NCBI GenBank assembly: GCA_044892525.1 | Contig: CM097885.1 | Coordinates: forward strand, 11,658,001 to 11,722,000 | Direction of reading: 5' to 3' | Source of the DNA: Schmidtea polychroa | Taxonomy: Eukaryota | Length of the DNA stretch: 64,000 bases | Part shown: positions 17,408 through 29,083 of the stretch, piece after piece | Numbering within the stretch: the stretch's first letter is position 1 | How the letters are laid out: every line of letters begins with the position of its first letter | Made by a program: the position numbers and the translations under genes | The notes under the pieces: model-generated | The model's input: only the letters and a program-made list of their open reading frames with translations | Told to the model about the DNA's origin: nothing | Database searches by the model: none

Positions 17408-20128
17408 ATTATTATATTATTATTTGTTTTAATAAAAAGTGATGATATCAAAATGTCACACTTCGAGTAGAAAACTTTTCCGATGATTAATACTTTTACT
17501 AGTGTCACTATATTTTTAAAGTCATTTTATTATTTTATTAAAATAAATTAATTAATTGAAAGAATATTAAAATTTTTAAATAAATTTCTTGATTTTCAAT
17601 TTAAGTATATTACTAACATCTTTTTATAATTTGAGAGACTCAGCAGTTAATGGATTTTAAATAAAGTTTCGTTTTTTGTTTTAATACGCTATTTAAATTT
17701 TTTTGTAGAACTTTACTAGATGCTTACGAAAATTCATTGGATTAAAATATAAAATAATTGAATTATTTGTATTTATTTTAATTACTTGAAATTTTTTTTT
17801 CAAAACATCTTGACAATTAATTAGAATTAAATAGAAAGATTTTTAATCGCAAATTTTATTGTTTTCCTATGAGCAGTTTGTTTTTTAATTGAATGAGTTG
17901 CAACTGCTGTACCGAGAATATTTGTAACTTATATACCGTATTAACCCGAATATAACGCGAGCCCGAATTTAGAAAAAATTACTCATAAAAAAATTAAAAT
18001 TAAGGGAAATTCAATCAGATAAGCGTTTGGTTAGGTAATTAAAAGTAATACATAGGTTATATTCATGACAATAAATTAAATTAATTTAAACCAAAATTTA
18101 ATAAAAATAAAATGTTAAAAAATGTCGTTGTATATTCTAGCTAATATGGTATTATAAAAATAATAATATCTTAGTCTAAGTTTATATAAATGACTGTTTT
18201 GTTTTAATACTTTGTATGTATAAGAAATAATTTTAATAACCGAAATCCACAATAGAATAGTTAAATACATTTTTGGCAACATCTCTATTCATTTATGATA
18301 TCACTTCTTTGCTTTGGAATTATAAAATCCTTGAACTTACATTTCGAAGTATTTATATCTTTAGATTAATTTCTACCGAGTGATCTTTTGTATATTGTTA
18401 TTATCTGTTTTATAATATTATCTTTTGAATTATTATGAAATTTCGAAGTCTATCAACGCACTTGGGTGTCCATAACTGTTACGTTATTCCAGAAGCACTC
18501 GTGTTATATGTTAACTCTTTAAAAAATTCATTCACATCTGGACAACTCTTTTTGTTGGAAGGTTGGAACTTTATTTTGCTAAAGAATTCTCACCATTATA
18601 AAGACAGTAAGACCTTAAATGTGAATTCACATTCTTTTCTTTATCTCAATCATTTTCTAAATGTTGAATAAATTTTTGAAAGATTTAAATTTACTTTCAA
18701 AATATTCGAAATTTATAATTATTTTTAATAATTAAATTAGAATAGTAAATCAATTTAATTTATTTCTCTCAAATAATTCATAAAGATTTATTTCCTTTCT
18801 TTTCATTTTCATAACACATGATTAACAAATACCACAAAATATATACTCAAAGTTTTCTTTATTTATTGTAATTTTTTAAAGTTAACATGCAAAAATAACA
18901 AATGTTTTTTTATTTAACTATTTCCCGATTGAATCTGCCAGAAGCAGACAATTTGTATATCACACTCATGTGACATTTTTATGGATCTATACAAATTGTC
19001 AATGTATCAATGCGCAAATAACTTAAATGTGCTTGTAAATCATTTTAACTTGTATATGTTCAATTATATCTGGATAAGTTATTCCCGTGAATCTGACTGT
19101 ATGTCACTAACAAGTGTATATGCTTCCATTAGGCAGTGTACAAATTCTTTCTGCTTATATTATTTAAATTTGAAAATGATATATATATATAATTTAAAAT
19201 TTTAATTGAAACCTGAACCATCAGTTACTCATGTATTTTCTAATTAAAGAATTTTTAAAATTATAATTTAAATAAAAAATCATTTTTCAATTTATATTAA
19301 AAACTTTTATATATATTTATTTTAAATTAAAAAGTTATCTGTTTTGTAAAAATTATAATTTTAAAAATTTGTTCATAATTTTTTTTGTGTTTTCTATCAT
19401 ATCTGATGATAACAAGAAAACAGTCGCAATATATCGTAAAGCGAATGTTTGAATGACCTTTTCTTATAATGAAATCATTATTTATAATGTAAGTATTATT
19501 AATGAGAAATTCGTTGTGTTTTATTATATGATTCAACGGCAGAATTTAAATTTAAATAAATTTATATCAATCTTGTTCTTATTTTTAACATAAATCAAAT
19601 AGATAATAATGGAATGTGATAATTAGATTGCAACGAAGATGTCAAATGTACGGTTTTTACAAATTGTAAGTATAATAAATAAATGGTTTATTTGAAGATA
19701 TAAAAATAATGCAAGACTGGTTTTATTTTTATTAGGTTAATTTTTCGGCAAAGGAATTGTAATTATTGTTAGTAATTATCAAAGGGGCGCCATCAGAATG
19801 GAAGGATAATCCTTGAATATAATAAATCAGTCATTTATTCTTTAACACTAGAACTACCAGGCCAGTCAAAATGACTGGTTTTACTTTTTTCATTAATTCA
19901 TCATTAATTTTTAATTATTTAATGAATTATGTTATGACTTTTCTAGTGATACCTGTCATACATTTTGAAGGTGCCTTATAATTCTCAGCATATGGGGCTC
20001 CAAATGCTATAAAATGCCACTGATTTTTGCAATTTCTAAATTTACAACCGGAAAAATCCTATTAGTTATGATAAATTCTAAATTGATGATTTTTTTTATA
20101 CAAATATTTTCCTAAATAAAATGAGAAA

Positions 20129-21317
20129 AGTAGTAAGATGTGTCACCTCCAGGACATGTCACCTCCAGGACACATATATATAAGTAGGTCAAGTTAAAAT
20201 TAAGTAGATCAAGTTAAAATTATGTAGGTCACGACTATATAGGTATTAAAATATGTAGGTCAAGTTACTTTAAATATATGTTACCTCCAGGACACTATAT
20301 AAATAAATAAGTCAAATTAAGTAGGTCACGACTATATAGTTTATAAAAAATATGTAGGTCAAGTTATTTTTAACATGTATCCCTATAATATATACATCAT
20401 TCAAAAGATATTTGAGAGTAGAGTACAATGATCATACCTTCAAAGGTGTATGGTGAATCCCTAACCTTCAAAAGGTGCAAAACCCTCGAATTTTTTCAAA
20501 CTCTATAATACATGTCATTCAAAAGGTAATTGAGATGTGAGTATGATGGTCATACAATCAAAGGTGTATGGTGAGTCCTTCACCTTCAAAGGGTCAAAAA
20601 ATTTCGAATTTTTTCAAACTTTATAATATATATACATCATTCAAAAGGTATTTGAGAGTAGAGTGTGATGGTCAAACCTTCAAAGATGTATGGTGAGTCC
20701 TTACCCTCAAGTGTCAAAAACTTTGATTTTTATTCAAACTGTAAATTGATCATTTCAACAAATTTTCAATCCCCAAAATAAATTTCCCAACTCAAAAATT
20801 TCCCAAATTTTAAAAATTCCCAAAAACAATTTTCCCAACTCAAATTTTTTCAAAAATTAAAAAGTCCCAAAAATGAAATTCCCCAAATTTCCCAACTCAA
20901 AATTTTTCAAATTTTAAAAAGTTTTCAAAACTATTTTCCCAAATTTTCCAACTAAATAGTAAAAGAATGTTTTACAAATTTTTTTTTTTCCTCGAATACA
21001 TCAAACCAAAAATTTAACAAGGTTCGTCACACAAATCTAATTTTGAAATCAAACAAATGAATTTAATAAAAATTAAAATCATCGACATACACAACCGCCG
21101 TTCGCCCGCCCGCCGCCCGTCCGCCGCCCGCCGCCGCCCGCCCCGAAGGGGCTGGCGCGGTAGTTTGTAAATTTGGTTTAGTTTGAATATTATTATTTGA
21201 TACATAGTTTTATTATTTACAATATTCAAAGTATTAATAACAAAGGTAAAGAAATAAATGTTTATAGTATGATACTCATTAATATACATTGAACATGCTT
21301 TACATTTGCGAACATTT
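20129..21317 (+). repeat. Left terminal inverted repeat of the Polinton
   Basis: Near-identical reverse complement of 27791-28972; contains 16-bp, ~120-bp and AAATTTCCCAA-type subrepeats and a GC-rich (CCGCCGC)n tract. Confidence 0.95.
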
Positions 21318-21671
21318 TAAATTTGAATTTTAAGGATTACTTTCGATAGATTATATTGAATAATGGTTCATTAAAAAGGTCTCATTTTTTTTTTTTTTTT
21401 TTTTTTTTGGATTTTTGTGAAAAGTTGTAGGTTAGGCTGAAAATTAATTAGTAAAAAATTGACACTTTTTGTGTTGTTGAAATAATTGAAATAAATATTT
21501 TAAAAAATGTAAAAACTGAAACGTTAAATATCATTGCAAGTTTGCTTGTCTTTTTATTATATGTATCGTGTTGAAATATCTAATTTTCTTATAATCTATC
21601 TATCGATCATCTTGTTGCTTTTGAATAATAGTATAAACATAATTATTTTTTCATTTTAATTATTTTCAACC

Positions 21672-22063
21672 ATGTCGGAAAAAGGTAAAATATGAATTTT
21701 ATGTTTATTAATTCTTTTTTTTTTTTTTATTTAGCATATATAATCAATTTTTTGATTGAAAAATTAGAGGAAATATCTAATGTAAAAATTAGAGAATTTA
21801 TGAATGTTCCAGAGAAATTAAAATGGCCGTATTCAGACGATGAAATTAATGAAGATGATATGTCATATGAATCTGAAAATATTTCCCAGCAAGAAGATGA
21901 ATATACTGATTTGCCTAGTGAAGAACTTAAGTCATGTATTGAGAATTCTACAACAGATAAATTACCAAATGAATCTAAACAAGAAGATGAATCTATTGTT
22001 TTTACTAATTGTATTGATCATATTGTTGAAAATATAATGAAAAGAGATTGTATTGAAGATTAA
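21672..22063 (+). CDS. Polinton small acidic protein, predicted 2 exons (21672-21684, 21735-22063)
   Basis: ATG TCG GAA AAA G|gtaaaa...tttag|CA TAT gives MSEKAYIINFLIEKLEEI..., in frame with ORF 21692-22063; 50-bp GT-AG intron. Confidence 0.65.
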
Positions 22064-22135
22064 TAAATTTAAAACTTTAGTTATTTTCAATGATTTAAAA
22101 ACACCAAAACACTAATAAAGATGTATTAAATAAAT

Positions 22136-22730
22136 TTAACATGAACAATGTTCCTCTTCAAACTTATCTTCGGCTTTTATAATTTTCCAAATTGGTTTGA
22201 TTCGGTCTCTGCTTACATTATACCCTTGAATTAATATGGTAACCATGCAGGTTATTTTGTTCATCTTACCACCATTGGGAATCATATCCAAATCGTTTCT
22301 AATGAACATATCTTCATCATCAAATTCAATATTTTCATTGATCCTCTGAAATAATTGTCCCAATAGCATCTTGTCGTGAAACTTGATTTTGGAAAGTCTC
22401 ACATTGTAGAAACATTTTTCCAGAGTTACTGGTTCCTAACAATAAATAATAATAATAATAAAATCCAAAATAATTTATAGAAACTTACCTTAAATGTATA
22501 GGAAATTGGACAATACAAATAATTTAGTTTGTATTGCATGAATTCGACTGGCTTTTTTGTATCCACTCGAACATTGACCAAGGTTTCCGTGGATAATGTC
22601 GCTTCTTTAAATTTCCTTTTTCCGAATTCCTGAGCGGCATCTGCATTTTTTCTCTTCAAAACTCCTAGATTAAAAAACTACTAAATGGAATATGTGTAAA
22701 CGACAACAAACCTGTAATTTGATTATCCAT
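22136..22730 (-). CDS. Polinton hypothetical protein (164 aa), predicted 3 exons (22730-22712, 22664-22489, 22435-22136); possible OB-fold ssDNA-binding protein
   Basis: GT-AG introns of 47 and 53 bp join ORFs 22426-22659 and 22136-22402 into one frame: MDNQITGVLKRK...YTFK|EPVTLEKCFYNVRLS...EEEHCSC. Confidence 0.7.
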
Positions 22731-22932
22731 TTGTAGTTATAATATTTAATAATTTGAACCAGATATTTTATACTAATTTCATTGTAAACAAGTTTCAAGT
22801 GACAGGCATGATCAAAACGTGATCAACTAGTTCATTTTATGCTAAATAACAAAGTCTGAAATGATTTATTGTACACAAAGAAATATTATAGGTTAATTAA
22901 GGTTATCACAAAACAAATATAATTATATTTTA

Positions 22933-23283
22933 TTACAACAATACATTTTTTCGCAATTCCACAAGTAATGCATGAATTATTTCTCGTTTCTCGTTTCTAT
23001 CATCCCCACAAGTATTCTGCATATTATTTTTACAAAAATCACAATTTTCAACATCATCGGTATAACATGTAATCGTAGCATGATCCATATGAATTAAATC
23101 TATTACATTTATTCCAGTTATTTCATAAATTTTCTAAAACACAACTTCTGGAGCACAATACATTAAGGAATTGTTCAAATTCGGATAAAAATCTTCAATT
23201 TTATCAATCAAAATTTTTAGTATAGTTTCTAAACAAAAATCAGTAAATTTAAAATAAAAACAGTTACCTTCATGTTCAATCAT
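22933..23283 (-). pseudogene. Polinton small Cys-containing protein with a predicted 39-bp intron (23229-23267) and one in-frame TAG (23134-23136)
   Basis: ATG overlaps the end of the TBP ORF; spliced reading MIEHEETILKILIDKIEDFYP...VVF*KIYEITG...CDFC...ELRKNVLL. Confidence 0.5.
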
Positions 23284-23788
23284 TGTTGAATAAATATTCA
23301 AGCAAATCCTCGTTACTTATATTTGAAGAAATTGTTAAAGATCCAATCAAATCCTTTACATCGTTTATAATTCCTTCAACAATAGTATGAAAATCTAAAT
23401 TTTTAATACCTAGTACAACTATTTTACCACTCGAAAATATATTTACACATAGTGGATTATATTTTGTATAACGCAGAGCGGGAAATAATTCAGGCTCATA
23501 TATACAATCTCCATCTAATAACTTTGCTAAATTATTCAAATTAATAGATTTTTCAACCTTGGTAGCTATAGTAAGACTTTGAACTTGAATATCTTTGATA
23601 TTATATTGCAAATTCTCGAATTCGATAGGCTTCTTACAACCCATTATACGACATTTACCATTTTTGAAAAATATAATAGTATATTTTCCAGTTTTGTCAA
23701 CATATTGTTGTGGTTTACACTTGGGGAAATTCATCATACCAACAGTTTCCAAAGACACACGACCTCTATAATTAATATTTGTCAACAT
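23276..23788 (-). CDS. TATA-binding protein (TBP)-like protein encoded inside the Polinton
   Basis: Intact 170-aa ORF with two TBP repeats: TIIFFKNGKCRIMG and INLNNLA...YEPELFPAL...VNIFSSGKIVVLG. Confidence 0.9.
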   Translation of the reverse strand: MLTNINYRGRVSLETVGMMNFPKCKPQQYVDKTGKYTIIFFKNGKCRIMGCKKPIEFENLQYNIKDIQVQSLTIATKVEKSINLNNLAKLLDGDCIYEPELFPALRYTKYNPLCVNIFSSGKIVVLGIKNLDFHTIVEGIINDVKDLIGSLTISSNISNEDLLEYLFNND

Positions 23789-23910
23789 TTCTACTGAATA
23801 TTTAAAAAAAAAAAATCAAGTATATATATATATATGTTATATTATAGAGTAATTAAATCAATTTATTTTTTACGATATAAACAAAATTAATTTTTAAATA
23901 AATATTAAAA

Positions 23911-24537
23911 ATGGAACTAAGAAATGATGCTGTATATCAAATAGTCGGACCAAGTGGTAGCGGCAAAACTTTGTTTGTTTGCAAATTACTAAAATCACAT
24001 TTATTTGAATCAAAATTTAACAAAATGTATTGGCATCGAGGTGCTGATCAAGAACACGGATTGACTCAATCAAGTTTCTGTAAATTGAAAAATATAAAAA
24101 TAGTAGAGGGATTTGATAAAAATTGGTCCAGTAGACTAAAGAAGGGGGATGTCATAATTATTGATGACTTGTATCAAGAAGCTAATAAAGAAAAGAATTT
24201 CAATAATTTATTTACCAAAATCAGTAGACACGTTGGTGTAACTGTTATTTTTATAACTCAAAATCTATTTCATCAAGGTGGTGCACATCGAACACGTAAT
24301 TTAAATGTACAATATTTAGTTATTTTCAAGAATCCTAGAGATGCAACAGTGATTGATTTTCTTGCACGTCAAGCATACCCTAACAATCGTAATTTTCTTA
24401 TCAGTGCATTTCAAGATGCTACAAAAATACCTCATGGATATATATTTCTTGATTTCACACAACAATGTCCCGATGATTTACGAGTAAAAACAGATATTTT
24501 CAACCCAAAAGGTGCCATGGTTTATAAACAAAGTTGA
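23911..24537 (+). CDS. Polinton DNA-packaging ATPase (A32/FtsK-HerA superfamily)
   Basis: Walker A GPSGSGKT, Walker B IIIDDL, and the SRH...VIFITQNLF, FKNPRD and PHGYIFLD motifs. Confidence 0.93.
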   Translation: MELRNDAVYQIVGPSGSGKTLFVCKLLKSHLFESKFNKMYWHRGADQEHGLTQSSFCKLKNIKIVEGFDKNWSSRLKKGDVIIIDDLYQEANKEKNFNNLFTKISRHVGVTVIFITQNLFHQGGAHRTRNLNVQYLVIFKNPRDATVIDFLARQAYPNNRNFLISAFQDATKIPHGYIFLDFTQQCPDDLRVKTDIFNPKGAMVYKQS

Positions 24538-24555
24538 AAACCTCTATGAATAATA

Positions 24556-25089
24556 ATGTTTCTAAAAGCAAGGGTGAAAAATATTAGGAAATTAAGAAAA
24601 AGTATTAAAAAGAGTATTAAAGTTCCAAAAGTTCCACCAACAACTAGTTATACACCATCTAAAAAACTTGTAACTGGAAATTTCTCTGCAATGAATCTTA
24701 TTTCGAAAAATCCTAAACCTAAACGTGAAACCCGTAAAACCCGTAAAGCCGGTAAAAAAGTAATTAAAAATCATCGCAGTTTTCCATTTTTTAATGCATT
24801 GTTAAAGGCCCCGAGTATGAAAAGAATGAATATATTGCAATCATTCCCAAATTTTGTTGTCGATGATTTACTCAATATTATACTTAAAGTAGTCAAAGGC
24901 AAAATTAAAATCAGTAAATCAAAAAAGCATTTATTGAGCAAACATAGGAAACCTTTGTTATCATTAGTAAATAATAAAAATCGTAAGCAAATGAGGAAAA
25001 TTATATATAAACAACAAGGTGGATTTATTGGTGCATTGATACCTCTGGCATTATCATTATTAGGTGGAGTTGTAGGAAATCAATCATAA
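24556..25089 (+). CDS. Polinton basic core/virion protein with C-terminal GG|F amphipathic peptide
   Basis: Lys/Arg-rich 177 aa ending QQGGFIGALIPLALSLLGG; located between the ATPase and integrase. Confidence 0.7.
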   Translation: MFLKARVKNIRKLRKSIKKSIKVPKVPPTTSYTPSKKLVTGNFSAMNLISKNPKPKRETRKTRKAGKKVIKNHRSFPFFNALLKAPSMKRMNILQSFPNFVVDDLLNIILKVVKGKIKISKSKKHLLSKHRKPLLSLVNNKNRKQMRKIIYKQQGGFIGALIPLALSLLGGVVGNQS

Positions 25090-25150
25090 ACAATGGGTGC
25101 TAATCCTTCATTACCTAATTTAAATTTTAATTTTAAATCTTCTTGCTGTA

Positions 25151-26296
<1,146 letters not shown>

Positions 26297-26300
<4 letters not shown>

Positions 26301-26536
26301 ATTTTTATACTATTTTACCGAGCAATAGTTGCCCATTAATTCATCCAGACAATCAAGCCAGTAAATTTATGGTCAATCTCCAGAATCCGATTTCTTTAAA
26401 TGGTGACTGGGAAGTTGCACTGCAAGATTTTACATTCGTGTACAACACATTCCCATTTTATAGTCAATGTAAGATTGATTTCAAAAGGAATATTGTGAAA
26501 ACATGTAGCGGTATCTTTGTAAGTAAAAATAAGTAA
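26297..26536 (+). pseudogene. N-terminal fragment of the Polinton minor capsid (penton) protein
   Basis: NFYTILPSNS...PDNQASKFMVNLQNPISLNGDWEVALQDF is the typical Polinton minor-capsid N-terminus; truncated at the deletion junction. Confidence 0.8.
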
Positions 26537-26541
26537 GTAAG

Positions 26542-26916
26542 GGTGTAGGATATAGTGAGTGGGTTTTCTTGCGACCAAAGTGCTACAGTCTTTTAGGAAA
26601 TAAATCTACTATGAGAGCTAAGGGCGTAAAATTACCAGGTACAGATATAAAACATCAATCTTATTTAGACTGTTACAACAACAACACAGTTATTTCTGTA
26701 CCTCAGACTAGAATAGGAACCCGAAATCATCAGCTTTTTACCTTTAAAAACTCAAAGATTGCTTTAACTAATCATGATGATAAAAGAGCTTGGGTAGAGA
26801 AAAACTCTAGTTTTGCATATGGTCATTATTTAGGGGTTGATGTCATTGATAATGACGATAATGATATTCAATCAGGAGCAGATCCCGATCTCATCAATCA
26901 ACATCTACAAGATTAA
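26542..26916 (+). pseudogene. C-terminal fragment of protein-primed family B DNA polymerase (pPolB)
   Basis: EWVFLRPKCYS, AKGVK, Y.DC, KIAL..HDDKR and AYGHY motifs. Confidence 0.9.
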
Positions 26917-27009
26917 TTTAATTCTGTGATCGGACTTGTTTGAATTTTTGTAAAATAGAAATTATTGTAAAGTCTCTTTTTCGTTTTATAATTATCGGTT
27001 TTATTTCTT

Positions 27010-27044
<35 letters not shown>

Positions 27045-27296
27045 ATTTGATGTGTAAAAGTATTTTATTAGAATGTAGTTTGTTAATAAAAATAATAATA
27101 AAAATAATAATACTTACTATATTGTGCACAAACATTATATCTTCAAATATATAACCATTGGATAGAGCTCTTCAAGACCTTTTTAATGAACCATTATTCA
27201 ATAAAATCTATCGAAGATAATCCTTAAAATTACCATTATTGATTTTAAATTATTTTCTTGTTTAATAAATGAGTTGTTTTAATGTATCTTTTATAA

Positions 27297-28073
27297 ATGT
27301 GTGCAGAATATAAGTATTTTCATAAATTTATTAAGAAATTACTGATGACCACGAGATCATTCAAGTTTTTAAACTACACCGTTGAAGATTTTATGAACAA
27401 TTATGATACTCTCACTGAAAAGGAAACCATAAAAATTTTAGAAATTTTCAAACATTCCTCCATTGGATATTTGATTGATTTATTTAATTACAATAAATGC
27501 ATTTTGAAGTTATCGATTTATTTGATGCATTTAGACAAAGCAATAGTAGATAATGATTCATTGAATGAATGCTTTTGGAATTGTATGGATTTAAGGCTGG
27601 AACCAGGATATAGTAGTAGATTGATTTATGAATGGATATCGAAATCCGAATTGATTGAAAATAAGCTAAGGAAAAAACTCAATGATGGTAGGAAAATGTA
27701 TTTAACTTGTTACATTTGTAAAGAAAATCAAGTATCGGTTTTGTTTTTACCTTGCGGACATGTAATTGTATGTTCTAAATGCCATGATTCAAATGTTCGC
27801 AAATGTAAAGCATGTTCAATGTATATTAATGAGTATCATACTATAAACATTTATTTCTTTACCTTTGTTATTAATACTCAAAATAATATTCAAACTAAAC
27901 CAAATTTACAAACTACCGCGCCAGCCCCTTCGGGGCGGGCGGCGGACGGCGGGCGGCGGGCGGCGGACGGGCGGCGGGCGGGCGAACGGCGGTTGTGTAT
28001 GTCGATGATTTTAATTTTTATTAAATTCATTTGTTTGATTTCAAAATTAGATTTGTGTGACGAACCTTGTTAA
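27297..28073 (+). CDS. Polinton C3HC4 RING-finger protein (IAP/MDM2-like RING); 3' part runs into the right TIR
   Basis: CYICKENQVSVLFLPCGHVIVCSKCHDSNVRKCKAC. The tail after the RING is low-complexity TIR sequence and may not be genuinely coding. Confidence 0.8.
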   Translation: MCAEYKYFHKFIKKLLMTTRSFKFLNYTVEDFMNNYDTLTEKETIKILEIFKHSSIGYLIDLFNYNKCILKLSIYLMHLDKAIVDNDSLNECFWNCMDLRLEPGYSSRLIYEWISKSELIENKLRKKLNDGRKMYLTCYICKENQVSVLFLPCGHVIVCSKCHDSNVRKCKACSMYINEYHTINIYFFTFVINTQNNIQTKPNLQTTAPAPSGRAADGGRRAADGRRAGERRLCMSMILIFIKFICLISKLDLCDEPC

Positions 28074-28972
28074 ATTTTTGGTTTGATGTATTCGAGGAAA
28101 AAAAAAATTTGTAAAACATTCTTTTACTATTTAGTTGGAAAATTTGGGAAAATAGTTTTGAAAACTTTTTAAAATTTGAAAAATTTTGAGTTGGGAAATT
28201 TGGGGAATTTCATTTTTGGGACTTTTTAATTTTTGAAAAAATTTGAGTTGGGAAAATTGTTTTTGGGAATTTTTAAAATTTGGGAAATTTTTGAGTTGGG
28301 AAATTTATTTTGGGGATTGAAAATTTGTTGAAATGATCAATTTACAGTTTGAATAAAAATCAAAGTTTTTGACACTTGAGGGTAAGGACTCACCATACAT
28401 CTTTGAAGGTTTGACCATCACACTCTACTCTCAAATACCTTTTGAATGATGTATATATATTATAAAGTTTGAAAAAATTCGAAATTTTTTGACCCTTTGA
28501 AGGTGAAGGACTCACCATACACCTTTGATTGTATGACCATCATACTCACATCTCAATTACCTTTTGAATGACATGTATTATAGAGTTTGAAAAATTTCGA
28601 GGGTTTTGCACCTTTGAAGGTTAGGGATTCACCATACACCTTTGAAGGTATGATCATTGTACTCTACTCTCAAATATCTTTTGAATGATGTATATATTAT
28701 AGGGATACATGTTAAAAATAACTTGACCTACATATTTTTTATAAACTATATAGTCGTGACCTACTTAATTTGACTTATTTATTTATATAGTGTCCTGGAG
28801 GTAACATATATTTAAAGTAATTTGACCTACATATTTTAATACCTATATAGTCGTGACCTATATAATTTTAACTTGATCTACTTAATTTTAACTTGACCTA
28901 CTTATATATATGTGTCCTGGAGGTGACATGTCCTGGAGGTGACATGTCCTGGAGGTGACACATCTTACTACT
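27791..28972 (-). repeat. Right terminal inverted repeat of the Polinton
   Basis: Reverse complement of 20129-21317 apart from a few substitutions and small indels. Confidence 0.95.
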
Positions 28973-29083
28973 GAGAAATTTGCATGCAAAATGATTTCCA
29001 CATGGATAATAACAAATCTGACATCAAAAGACCCTGCACGAGATATCAAAATCACATTTGAAAGTAAGAAATGTATGATTATT

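Follow-up and report, generated by a model that had tools for sequence, protein, structure and literature searches.

A TATA-binding protein homologue conserved in a Maverick/Polinton clade, and a YATAAAC box upstream of most other genes of the element

Known TBP-fold factors of viruses and animals

Giant viruses that carry homologues of the TATA-binding protein (TBP) have an RNA polymerase of their own. Their homologues (those of Heterosigma akashiwo virus and Terrestrivirus, and the ASFV-type B263R) resemble the protein described here, which we call the element TBP, in that a TBP fold is encoded by a virus (best BFVD E value 3.6e-8), but they are longer (186-547 aa among the top matches) and only 11-21% identical to it. 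Animals possess a TBP paralogue, TRF2/TLF, which acts at TATA-less promoters and lacks the kinking Phe pairs, three of whose four positions are kept in the element TBP. A diverged TBP that serves a special class of promoters would be the point of likeness here, whereas the TRF2-like gene of the host (L050) groups with the cellular TBPs, apart from the element TBPs. To our knowledge, neither Polintons/Mavericks nor adintovirus-like viruses have an RNA polymerase of their own.

The beta- and gammaherpesviruses encode a TBP mimic (KSHV ORF24, EBV BcRF1, HCMV UL87) for late promoters with a TATT motif, as described in the consulted parts of PMC7498053 and PMC12529657, and the consulted part of PMC7498053 also describes direct binding of these mimics to Pol II. 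The likeness to the present case would be one of function, by analogy: a DNA virus of the nucleus that has no polymerase itself brings a TBP-fold factor to recognize a variant of the TATA box at late genes. The herpesvirus mimics are, however, large proteins whose folds match only distantly (BFVD E values of 8.9e-4 for U58 and 1.1e-2 for BcRF1), and the element TBP probably does not belong to that family.

Among the papers listed by a search of the literature on TBP in Polintons, Mavericks and adintoviruses, only one adintovirus paper from 2021 (PMC8502044) and its preprint were relevant. The legend of Fig. 5 in that paper bears a 'TBP' gene label for MELD viruses with adintovirus-like PolB genes, and the resemblance is that a linear dsDNA virus of middle size, with a PolB of adintovirus/Polinton type, has a TBP-like gene. 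In section 3.4 and the legends of the paper the gene is labelled only, and these parts contain no analysis of its architecture, spread or promoters.

The element and its TBP gene

The element TBP is encoded in what we call the window, the whole stretch of 64,000 nucleotides of Schmidtea polychroa DNA that was analysed. The element spans positions 20129-28972 and is bounded by TIRs and a TSD, as the preliminary description stated. The TIRs measure 1.2 kb, and the TSD is a perfect repeat of 6 bp, with GAGAAA at 20123..20128 on the left and at 28973..28978 on the right. The left TIR (20129..21382) begins AGTAGTAAG and contains, at 21014-21316, part of the 3' end of the RING gene in inverted orientation, while the right TIR (27175..28972) overlaps that RING-finger (C3HC4) gene, which encodes a protein of 258 aa on the plus strand (27297..28073; PF13920, 38.8 bits against a cut-off of 27). 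The TBP gene (23276..23788, minus strand) and the packaging ATPase gene (23911..24537, plus strand; 208 aa, Pox_A32 type, PF04665 at 29.3 bits against a cut-off of 22.8) are divergent, also as first described, with a spacer of 122 bp between them. On the plus strand there follow a basic protein of 177 aa with a hydrophobic C-terminus (24556..25089), which matches no Pfam family but is conserved and adjoins the ATPase in relatives too, and a probable integrase with an rve core, a chromodomain and an in-frame ATT-microsatellite run (25212..26300). Both integrase domains score under their cut-offs (rve, E 2.9e-5 and 24.7 bits against 32.6; Chromo, 21.0 bits against 25.1). An acidic ORF of 123 aa occupies 21692-22063 and has a plus-strand box upstream. 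The overlap of the end of the TBP gene with the next ATG, at 23283, was confirmed, but the minus-strand ORF that begins there (23134..23283) is not an intact gene, as an in-frame stop at 23134-23136 leaves 49 aa of the 122 aa present in a full-length relative. No counterpart of this ORF was found in the metagenome relatives.

That relative, which is 16.2 kb long, has genes for a double jelly-roll capsid protein, an adenain-type protease (Peptidase_C5, PF00770, 29.5 bits against a cut-off of 21.3) and a 1300-aa pPolB. An hmmscan of the 1300-aa ORF did not find PF03175, and the ORF is called pPolB because it is 58-72% identical to genome frames that pass PF03175. The 407-aa capsid protein of the same relative lineage was modelled by AlphaFold2 with a pLDDT of 73, and the model gives VIA Z values of 25.6 against the capsid protein of PBCV-1, 21.2 against that of Sputnik and 19.6 against that of mavirus. 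Neither the capsid gene nor the protease gene is present in the window copy. At the point that corresponds to the deletion junction of the window copy (26518..26536) the relative has 7.45 kb extra. This stretch holds the capsid and protease genes, an ORF of 120 aa, and the greater part both of an ORF of 355 aa and of pPolB; a C-terminal remnant of pPolB persists in the window (26533..26916, plus strand). Since the missing 7.45 kb includes the capsid genes, the window copy is an internal-deletion derivative and not a complete virus, and the earlier wording of a virus carrying its own TBP does not apply to this copy. The TBP gene is conserved across a broad clade of Maverick/Polinton elements, whose gene set also includes a double jelly-roll capsid, an A32-type ATPase, an adenain-type protease, pPolB and an integrase.

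Four runs of contigs, which are only guessed to be RNA, were compared with the element and are not counted as expression evidence. Run X1 covers the TBP gene, and run X2 has A/T runs of 11-17 letters, resembling poly(A) tails, after positions 24581 and 26199 and before positions 22110 and 20979.

The TBP ORF is intact from ATG to TGA and encodes 170 aa. Pfam TBP (PF00352) matches it in two stretches with 61.5 bits (cut-off 22.9; E 6.9e-17), in agreement with the two repeats first described. All of the 35 PDB sequences matched by the ORF are TBPs; a profile of the family (65 members) likewise matched 35 PDB sequences, all of them TBPs, with scores of 57-80 bits that show no clear break among archaeal, microsporidian, plant, yeast and human proteins. 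AlphaFold2, supplied with an alignment of 65 sequences (the 170-aa ORF and 64 relatives), returned a model with a pLDDT of 94.7 and a pTM of 0.82, and every one of its 44 Foldseek matches in the PDB at E <= 0.001 is a TBP (TM 0.57-0.67). The TBP fold was upheld by both the HMM and the structure prediction, and the 170-aa ORF is confirmed as a true TBP homologue in a Polinton/Maverick.

The model has five strands per half, which together form a ten-strand saddle, with a shortened repeat 1 (about residues 1-62), a complete repeat 2 (about residues 63-156) and an additional C-terminal helix after it. The element TBP shares with cellular TBP (PF00352; yeast, human and archaeal proteins in the PDB) the two-repeat saddle, the EPELF stirrup of repeat 2, the GK..G strand motifs and Phe at three of the four kinking positions. 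Aligned to the host TBP core, repeat 2 keeps E98-P99-E100-L101-F102 and F118, and repeat 1 keeps F41 (in IFFKNGK). At what we take to be the four kinking-Phe positions of cellular TBP, F41, F102 and F118 fill three, and the fourth is Y29, which is variable across the family. Unlike cellular TBP, the protein is only about 150-170 aa long, has no N-terminal region, comes from a mobile virus-like element and falls in a clade of its own. Its repeat 1 lacks most of helix H1 (5 aa), 5 aa of the stirrup and 13 aa of helix H2 relative to host TBP; the strands are kept and both helices are mostly gone, with just H13-17 and a three-residue turn in the model. These results bear out the preliminary description of an acidic stirrup with both Phe in repeat 2, a repeat 1 that is shortened but keeps IFFKNGK, and an absent N-terminal extension. 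At the central minor-groove positions, which in cellular TBP are presumably two Asn and two Thr, the alignment places N4, M49, S71 and L126, and this fits an altered sequence preference of the element TBP.

Nine columns are invariant in the 65-sequence alignment, among them F41, E100, F118, G121 and G127, while E98, P99, F102 and P103 are kept in at least 90% of the sequences, and the shortening of repeat 1 is common to the whole family. As modelled, the element TBP is an asymmetric, 'one-and-a-half' TBP with a ten-strand saddle, three of the four kinking Phe and a C-terminal stirrup. It offers a natural 'minimal TBP' for asking which TBP surfaces initiation needs.

A box upstream of element genes and its possible reader

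Upstream of the element genes we observed a box, YATAAAC(A), which is new in this analysis; ahead of the ATPase, integrase and capsid genes its distance from the ATG is about 35 nt. For the counts, YATAAAC was scored in sense orientation over the 150 nt upstream of the ATG, and the expectation was taken from shuffles. The box precedes the ATPase in 27 of 29 cases, the integrase in 17 of 20 and the capsid gene in 10 of 11, as well as p120 (7/8), p177 (8/10) and p355 (9/14), against a shuffle expectation of 0.6-1.4 boxes per gene for these six; the antisense control gave 0 or 1 per gene. Before TBP, by contrast, the box was found in 2 of 75 cases where shuffles predict 3.4, and it is low throughout the farther 150-nt bins upstream of TBP (2/66 to 8/39). 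One of seven upstream windows of PolB contains it, a count to which we give no weight. In 36 of 84 instances the box lies 31-45 nt ahead of the ATG, and its seventh base is C in 78 of 92 windows, as compared with A in 6, G in 5 and T in 8.

Within the window, TATAAACA occurs on the plus strand at 23876..23883, 35 nt before the ATPase ATG and inside the divergent TBP/ATPase spacer, where the same strand has no gene upstream. It occurs again on the plus strand upstream of the gene for the 177-aa basic protein (24523..24530, 33 nt from its ATG) and upstream of the 123-aa acidic ORF (21632..21639, 60 nt from its ATG). A TATAAAC box on the minus strand (23363..23369) is situated within the coding sequence of TBP and precedes by 86 nt the ATG of the ORF that overlaps TBP downstream. 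Where a gene abuts another upstream, the box may act as a poly(A) signal of the latter. In the 16.2-kb relative a box is also present 957 nt upstream of PolB, in the protease-PolB gap.

In cellular TBP, the stirrup of repeat 2 (EPEL) contacts TFIIB and the convex side of repeat 1 is the surface gripped by regulators. On the fold, conservation, synteny and box distribution observed here, we favor with moderate confidence the view that the ORF encodes a functional TBP homologue of the element that acts as an initiation factor at YATAAAC(A) promoters, to which it would bind. Made from a promoter without the element's own box, the element TBP would bind the YATAAAC(A) boxes that lie some 35 nt upstream of the start codons of the packaging, core, integrase and capsid genes, and its retained stirrup would recruit host TFIIB and RNA polymerase II, giving the element a switch of its own for these genes. 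The loss in repeat 1 may allow it to evade host regulators whose point of contact is the convex side of that repeat. The earlier suggestion that the protein redirects Pol II/TFIIB to promoters of the element is indirectly supported by the sequences, in that the box precedes most element genes but not TBP. A conserved, compact TBP together with a conserved promoter box would provide a concrete and testable model of Polinton gene control.

More tentatively, we propose that this animal-associated Maverick/Polinton clade has a private switch, in which a stripped TBP without the surfaces for host regulators would read YATAAACA before nearly all other genes, and the TBP gene alone would be under host-type control. 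If this is true, no smaller self-contained viral system of promoter recognition that works with host polymerase II would be known, and it could explain the timing of capsid-gene expression in these elements.

It is possible, although we consider it unlikely, that the box is read by the host, through its own TBP, a Forkhead-type factor or the poly(A) machinery, and that the element TBP binds DNA for some other purpose, such as replication or packaging at the termini, or transcription by polymerase III. The box does contain host-type motifs: TATAAA is the host TATA core and also a variant poly(A) signal, and ATAAACA fits the Forkhead core RYAAAYA. The host TATA consensus, however, prefers A or T at the seventh base (host-type form for comparison, TATAAAAG), where the element box has a nearly fixed C, and the strict sense orientation and the peak at 31-45 nt before the ATG also speak against a host reader. 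Contigs of run X2, of possible RNA origin, terminate in stretches of A or T close to the ends of genes, as poly(A) processing would have it, whereas the box in the divergent spacer and the box before the first gene after the TIR have no upstream gene needing a poly(A) signal. The TBP gene adjoins the packaging ATPase in many loci, which would suit this reading, but its position relative to the ATPase differs between clades.

Quite improbable, in our judgment, is a decoy or competitor that ties up TFIIB or Brf, or sits on host TATA boxes, and so damps host transcription or shifts polymerase choice during replication. The conserved TFIIB-contact stirrup would serve such a protein, and with the convex helices of repeat 1 gone it could bind DNA or TFIIB yet fail to assemble a full complex. 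Against this, the saddle and the kinking residues have been kept through deep divergence, and the position-fixed box before the element's genes and its absence before TBP are more simply explained by a positive role. An initiation factor at YATAAAC(A) promoters is the reading that we retain.

Spread, co-inheritance and selection

The TBP gene is widespread in metagenomes, where we recovered 80 loci, which are not mutually independent and include some near-identical ones. At least one other element gene accompanies it in 41 of the 80, and among contigs of at least 5 kb with TBP, 13 of 15 have other Polinton genes. TBP identity tracks ATPase identity (Spearman 0.77, n=28) and integrase identity (Spearman 0.76, n=20) across loci. 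In IMG/VR, the TBP alignment found only one distant locus (L059), which matches in repeat 2 alone with 33% identity, and the ATPase alignment, which might have supplied TBP-less Polintons as a control for the co-occurrence of box and TBP, found no relatives. Look-ups of the family proteins gave no name past the automatic 'TBP' label.

In the tree, a branch with 100/99 support splits off 31 Polinton TBPs and an unnamed representative (P0191) from the four host paralogues and 29 two-repeat TBPs, the tree representatives being without taxon labels. Host TBP gives only a 32-aa local match to the element TBP. The element TBP is therefore neither a host retrocopy nor private to the window copy, and its divergence, separate clade and tracking of the other element genes support long residence rather than recent capture from the host, as had been proposed from the window alone. 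A TBP is less novel in Polintons than had been assumed: the gene is common in this clade, with thousands of candidate genomic copies besides the metagenome loci, and a 'TBP' label already stands in the Fig. 5 legend of PMC8502044.

Relative to a diverged genomic copy, the TBP gene shows five synonymous changes and one non-synonymous change. Copy L057 shows one synonymous and four non-synonymous changes. The left arm of the diverged copy is unusually similar (pS 0.03-0.05, as compared with 0.2-0.5 rightward), which points to recombination. The 30 genomic loci were chosen by TBP protein score, which biases the count of 29 copies that share one protein, and the selection data are thin. That the gene is a decaying passenger, a captured fragment of host TBP without function, is scarcely credible and largely refuted: the shortened repeat 1 and the four non-synonymous changes of L057 would fit it, but the host match is short, the clade is separate, the same shortening runs throughout the family, nine columns are invariant in 65 sequences, and a complete TBP ORF of 130-200 aa is present in 58 of the 80 metagenome loci although the pPolB of those elements is just 32-53% identical.

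Sister Polintons with the same TBP-ATPase layout were found, the layout being collinear in most of the 30 genomic loci, and the TBP gene and the box can serve as markers when animal genomes and metagenomes are annotated for this clade. Copies of the element number about a thousand or more in the genome. At least 150 scored TBP copies, taken from 4072 first-look candidates, have at least 99% protein identity, and 149 of them are without stops. A second TBP family has 54% identity.

The element TBP: sequence, fold and residue map

An unbroken frame of 170 codons, running from ATG to TGA, is found at 23276-23788 on the minus strand. When the ORF was compared with Pfam, it matched the TBP family in two stretches (E 6.9e-17, 61.5 bits, cut-off 22.9), and a sequence search of the PDB gave 35 matches, all 35 of them TBPs and the top two archaeal. 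An alignment of the ORF with 64 relatives was used as input to AlphaFold2, and the resulting model has a mean pLDDT of 94.7 and a pTM of 0.82. All 44 matches of this model at E <= 0.001 in a Foldseek search of the PDB are TBPs (TM 0.57-0.67). The preliminary description reported an intact TBP ORF in a Polinton and named HMM and structure searches as checks. Both return TBP; the ORF is borne out as a genuine TBP homologue by the Pfam score, the PDB sequence matches and the AlphaFold2 and Foldseek results, and the observation as a whole by the frame, Pfam, fold and TIR/TSD data.

Each half of the model has five strands. The sole helix of the first half is five residues long (13-17) and the long second helix is absent; the second half has helices at 84-91 and 134-156, plus an additional C-terminal helix. 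Using the core of the host TBP (locus L047) as reference, we observed that E98-P99-E100-L101-F102 and F118 are retained in repeat 2 and F41 in repeat 1. The remaining kinking position is Y29, which is variable within the family. Relative to host TBP, repeat 1 is shorter by five residues in H1, five in the stirrup and 13 in H2. The central groove contacts of cellular TBP are two Asn and two Thr, for which the element counterparts are N4, M49, S71 and L126. Nine positions are invariant in the 65 family members (N6, P26, F41, M49, E100, N116, F118, G121 and G127). The earlier account of the protein, with a shortened repeat 1 and a stirrup and Phe positions kept in repeat 2, is therefore accurate.

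The window copy and its full-length relative

Inverted repeats of about 1.2 kb (20129-21382 and 27175-28972) bound the element, and the hexamer GAGAAA lies immediately outside them (20123-20128 and 28973-28978). Divergent from the TBP gene is an A32-type ATPase gene (23911-24537, plus strand; PF04665, 29.3 bits). Also on the plus strand are genes for a 177-aa basic protein (p177, 24556-25089) and an integrase with chromodomain (25212-26300; rve E 2.9e-5, under the Pfam cut-off), a short polymerase remnant (26533-26916) and a RING-finger gene (27297-28073). The last of these extends into the right TIR, and part of its 3' end, with a G+C-rich stretch, is therefore repeated in inverted orientation within the left TIR (21014-21316, minus strand). 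An in-frame ATT microsatellite at about 25540-25690 in the integrase gene encodes a long Ile run and is a source of spurious Pfam matches. A small ORF (25090-25281, plus strand) starting MGANPS lies directly after a CATAAACA box, and ORFs starting MGN are found just before TBP in the distant metagenome relatives L110, L114 and L129. A Gly after the N-terminal Met could be a myristoylation site.

Two relatives found in this genome align with the window between the left TIR and about 26518, beyond which they carry different sequence. One of them, 16.2 kb long, shares its TIRs with the window copy, and 7.45 kb of it is missing from the window copy (junction 26518-26536; relatives at loci L043-L045). 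The missing part comprises a 355-aa ORF, a 120-aa ORF, the capsid gene, the protease gene and most of a 1300-aa polymerase. The window copy is a deletion derivative, and it is one still mobilised, because its TIRs and TSD are intact despite the 7.45-kb loss. The suggestion that this copy is itself a virus does not hold, as it is without the capsid gene, the protease and most of the polymerase. Broken frames were observed in both relatives examined, in the ATPase and capsid genes, and no copy was picked as intact.

The protease of the 16.2-kb relative is of adenain type (PF00770, 29.5 bits). Over about 1100 residues, the 1300-aa polymerase ORF shares 58-72% identity with genome frames passing PF03175; hmmscan of the ORF itself did not report PF03175. 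Residues 596-635 of the polymerase ORF at L046 score 22.3-23.1 bits against Endonuclease_7 (PF02945), just below the cut-off of 23.6. For the capsid, a 407-aa protein was modelled (AlphaFold2, 11-sequence alignment, pLDDT 73). This model aligns with the PBCV-1 capsid at Z 25.6 (rmsd 3.0, 344 aligned), with that of Sputnik at Z 21.2 and with that of mavirus at Z 19.6; structure ranks 1-16 are all capsid or capsid-derived proteins. The top-ranked BFVD entry is an uncharacterised protein assigned to a Cotesia bracovirus (E 8.9e-23). Judged from the model, the 407-aa protein matches double jelly-roll capsid proteins. The element family is therefore a bona fide Maverick/Polinton.

Distribution, origin and conservation of the TBP gene

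A protein search of the 781-Mb genome gave 150 scored places, a subset of 4072 first-look candidates, at 99-100% identity, 149 of which are stop-free. With the neighbouring gene, a DNA search gave 40 scored places at about 100% identity from 1667 candidates. Searching the genome with Pfam TBP adds the host canonical TBP, several host paralogues and one more TBP of the element type, 171 aa long and 54% identical to the window TBP. This second family, found at L058 (G000 C1:89111543-89114776) and further places, is sister to the window TBP in the tree, and ORFs of 163 aa may represent a third type. Host and element TBP share only a local match of 32 residues (56% identity, E 3e-5).

Beyond this genome, a collection of 5.8 billion proteins yielded 107 matching proteins, mostly of 144-165 aa and 40-60% identical, and 127 clusters of a representative library match at E <= 1e-10. 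A metagenome scan confirmed 183 stretches, of which 80 were kept and searched with the other element proteins. At least one other element gene is present in 41 of these 80 loci, the proportion being 5/29 on contigs under 2 kb and 13/15 on those of at least 5 kb. The gene order near TBP differs among loci: TBP and ATPase lie on the same strand or diverge as in the window, and protease-TBP and polymerase-TBP-ATPase orders also occur. TBP identity tracks that of the ATPase (Spearman 0.77, n=28) and of the integrase (0.76, n=20). These comparisons show a conserved, asymmetric TBP that has a fixed place among the genes of a Polinton clade.

Other ORFs adjoin TBP in these loci. The most distant of the metagenome clades has a conserved ~134-aa ORF just 5' of TBP (L110 3994-4398, L114 9086-9487, L119 771-1214, L129 1793-2221); its YxGPG...HD..Y pattern may be that of parvovirus-type phospholipase A2 domains. 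In the nearer clade, an ORF of about 110-120 aa, conserved at 28-61% identity between loci and absent from the window, adjoins TBP at L062 1788-2138, L060 2756-3085, L072 1503-1841, L082 1696-2064 and L073 1253-1822, belonging in L073 to a 189-aa ORF.

In a maximum likelihood tree of 65 rows, whose bootstrap was not fully settled, a 100/99 branch separates 31 element TBPs and one unnamed representative from four host paralogues and 29 two-repeat TBPs. Against the family profile, TBPs of archaea and of eukaryotes obtain similar scores (57-80 bits). Long residence rather than recent capture had been proposed, and the separate clade, the 32-residue host match and the co-varying identities agree with this; the TBP gene is old in this virus lineage and no recent host capture.

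The main evidence on selection is deep conservation, with a complete TBP ORF in 58 of the 80 metagenome loci and nine invariant columns. Data from within the genome are sparse. In 30 genomic loci, a biased sample picked by TBP protein score, the protein is identical in 29 and carries a single private change in the window copy; synonymous differences number up to five. Against one diverged copy, pN/pS is 0.05 for TBP (5 synonymous, 1 non-synonymous), 0.15-0.32 for the ATPase, p177, the integrase and the 355-aa and 120-aa ORFs (p355, p120), and 0.63 for p124, a neighbouring ORF. This diverged copy (L041 and L042, compared with window 21600-26500) is a mosaic: synonymous divergence is 0.03-0.05 for the 123-aa ORF and TBP, which lie in the left arm, and rises to 0.2-0.5 for the ATPase and everything to its right. 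Because the low divergence is confined to the left arm, recombination explains part of the TBP likeness, and module exchange between subfamilies is suggested. Another copy, L057, has one synonymous and four non-synonymous changes.

A TATA-like box upstream of element genes

When words enriched before ORFs were sought, (T/C)ATAAACA emerged both from the full-length relative and from distantly related metagenome elements. We counted sense-strand YATAAAC in the 150 nt preceding each start codon in one genomic element and the 80 metagenome loci. The box is present in 27/29 windows for the ATPase, 17/20 for the integrase, 10/11 for the capsid, 7/8 for p120, 8/10 for p177, 9/14 for p355 and 5/11 for the protease, and in 2/75 for TBP. 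Shuffled windows expect 0.4-1.4 boxes for ATPase to protease and 3.4 for TBP; antisense boxes number 0 or 1 per gene and 5, respectively. For the polymerase (1/7 windows), the count was treated as uninformative. The box starts 31-45 nt before the ATG in 36 of 84 instances, and 67 of 82 instances have A as the eighth base. At the seventh position the box is specific despite the A+T-rich sequence, with YATAAAC in 78/92 windows versus 6 for YATAAAA, 5 for YATAAAG and 8 for YATAAAT. Upstream of TBP, successive 150-nt bins contain the box in 2/66, 5/58, 3/51, 8/47 and 8/39 cases. These counts show that a conserved TATA-like box, oriented and fixed in position, stands ahead of most genes of the element, the TBP gene excepted.

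In the window, boxes lie 35 nt before the ATPase ATG (23876), 33 nt before p177 (24523) and 60 nt before the 123-aa ORF (21632), and within the TBP gene at 23369-23363 (minus strand), 86 nt before the overlapping ORF. The 16.2-kb relative has a TATAAACA box at L044 6159, which is 957 nt ahead of the main polymerase ORF, in the ORF-free stretch between protease and polymerase.

The box also resembles motifs of host type, namely TATAAA, the Forkhead core and a poly(A) signal variant. Where genes abut, it could possibly be the poly(A) signal of the upstream gene; this role is excluded by layout ahead of the ATPase, where the spacer is divergent, and ahead of the first gene after the TIR. As a putative promoter element, the box is predicted to be bound by the element TBP, whose altered groove-contact residues would account for the fixed C, and the retained stirrup would recruit TFIIB and polymerase II. 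Packaging, core, integrase and capsid genes would be switched on by the element TBP, and the TBP gene itself would be under host factors. The preliminary interpretation, that a virus redirects transcription to its own promoters, is upheld in part: the TBP homologue is genuine and old and the box gives indirect support to a promoter role, but the copy is deleted and not a complete virus.

Giant viruses and herpesviruses already provide examples of virus-encoded TBPs. In its mode of action, the element TBP would be most like the TBP mimic that beta- and gamma-herpesviruses use together with a variant late TATA box; the likeness proposed is one of function, not of shared family. Full-text searches combining Polinton, Maverick, adintovirus or Polintoviricetes with TBP, TATA or TFIID found neither the truncated TBP architecture, nor a TBP gene conserved across a broad Polinton clade, nor the associated box. 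These searches led to one relevant source, the adintovirus paper PMC8502044 with its preprint, where the legend to a figure of MELD viruses carrying adintovirus-like PolB genes labels a 'TBP' gene that section 3.4 and the matching passages leave unanalysed; the matching passages of a paper on Cymbomonas refer to TBP genes of mirusvirus-like elements rather than of Polintons. The TBP-box pair is of interest because it yields a model of gene regulation that can be tested directly, in viruses for which there is none.

Contigs of run X2, the nature of which is not recorded, end in 11-17 consecutive A or T not present in the window, as poly(A) tails would. These ends fall at 24581, 26199, 22110 and 20979; those at 22110 and 20979 are 26 and 35 nt beyond minus-strand stop codons, and that at 24581 is 44 nt beyond the ATPase stop. 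Run X6, with an organism label unlike those of X1-X3, contains pieces with 95% or higher similarity to the 3' end of the ATPase gene, to p177 and to the 5' end of the integrase gene (24258-25445), with high depth there and little of the TBP gene.
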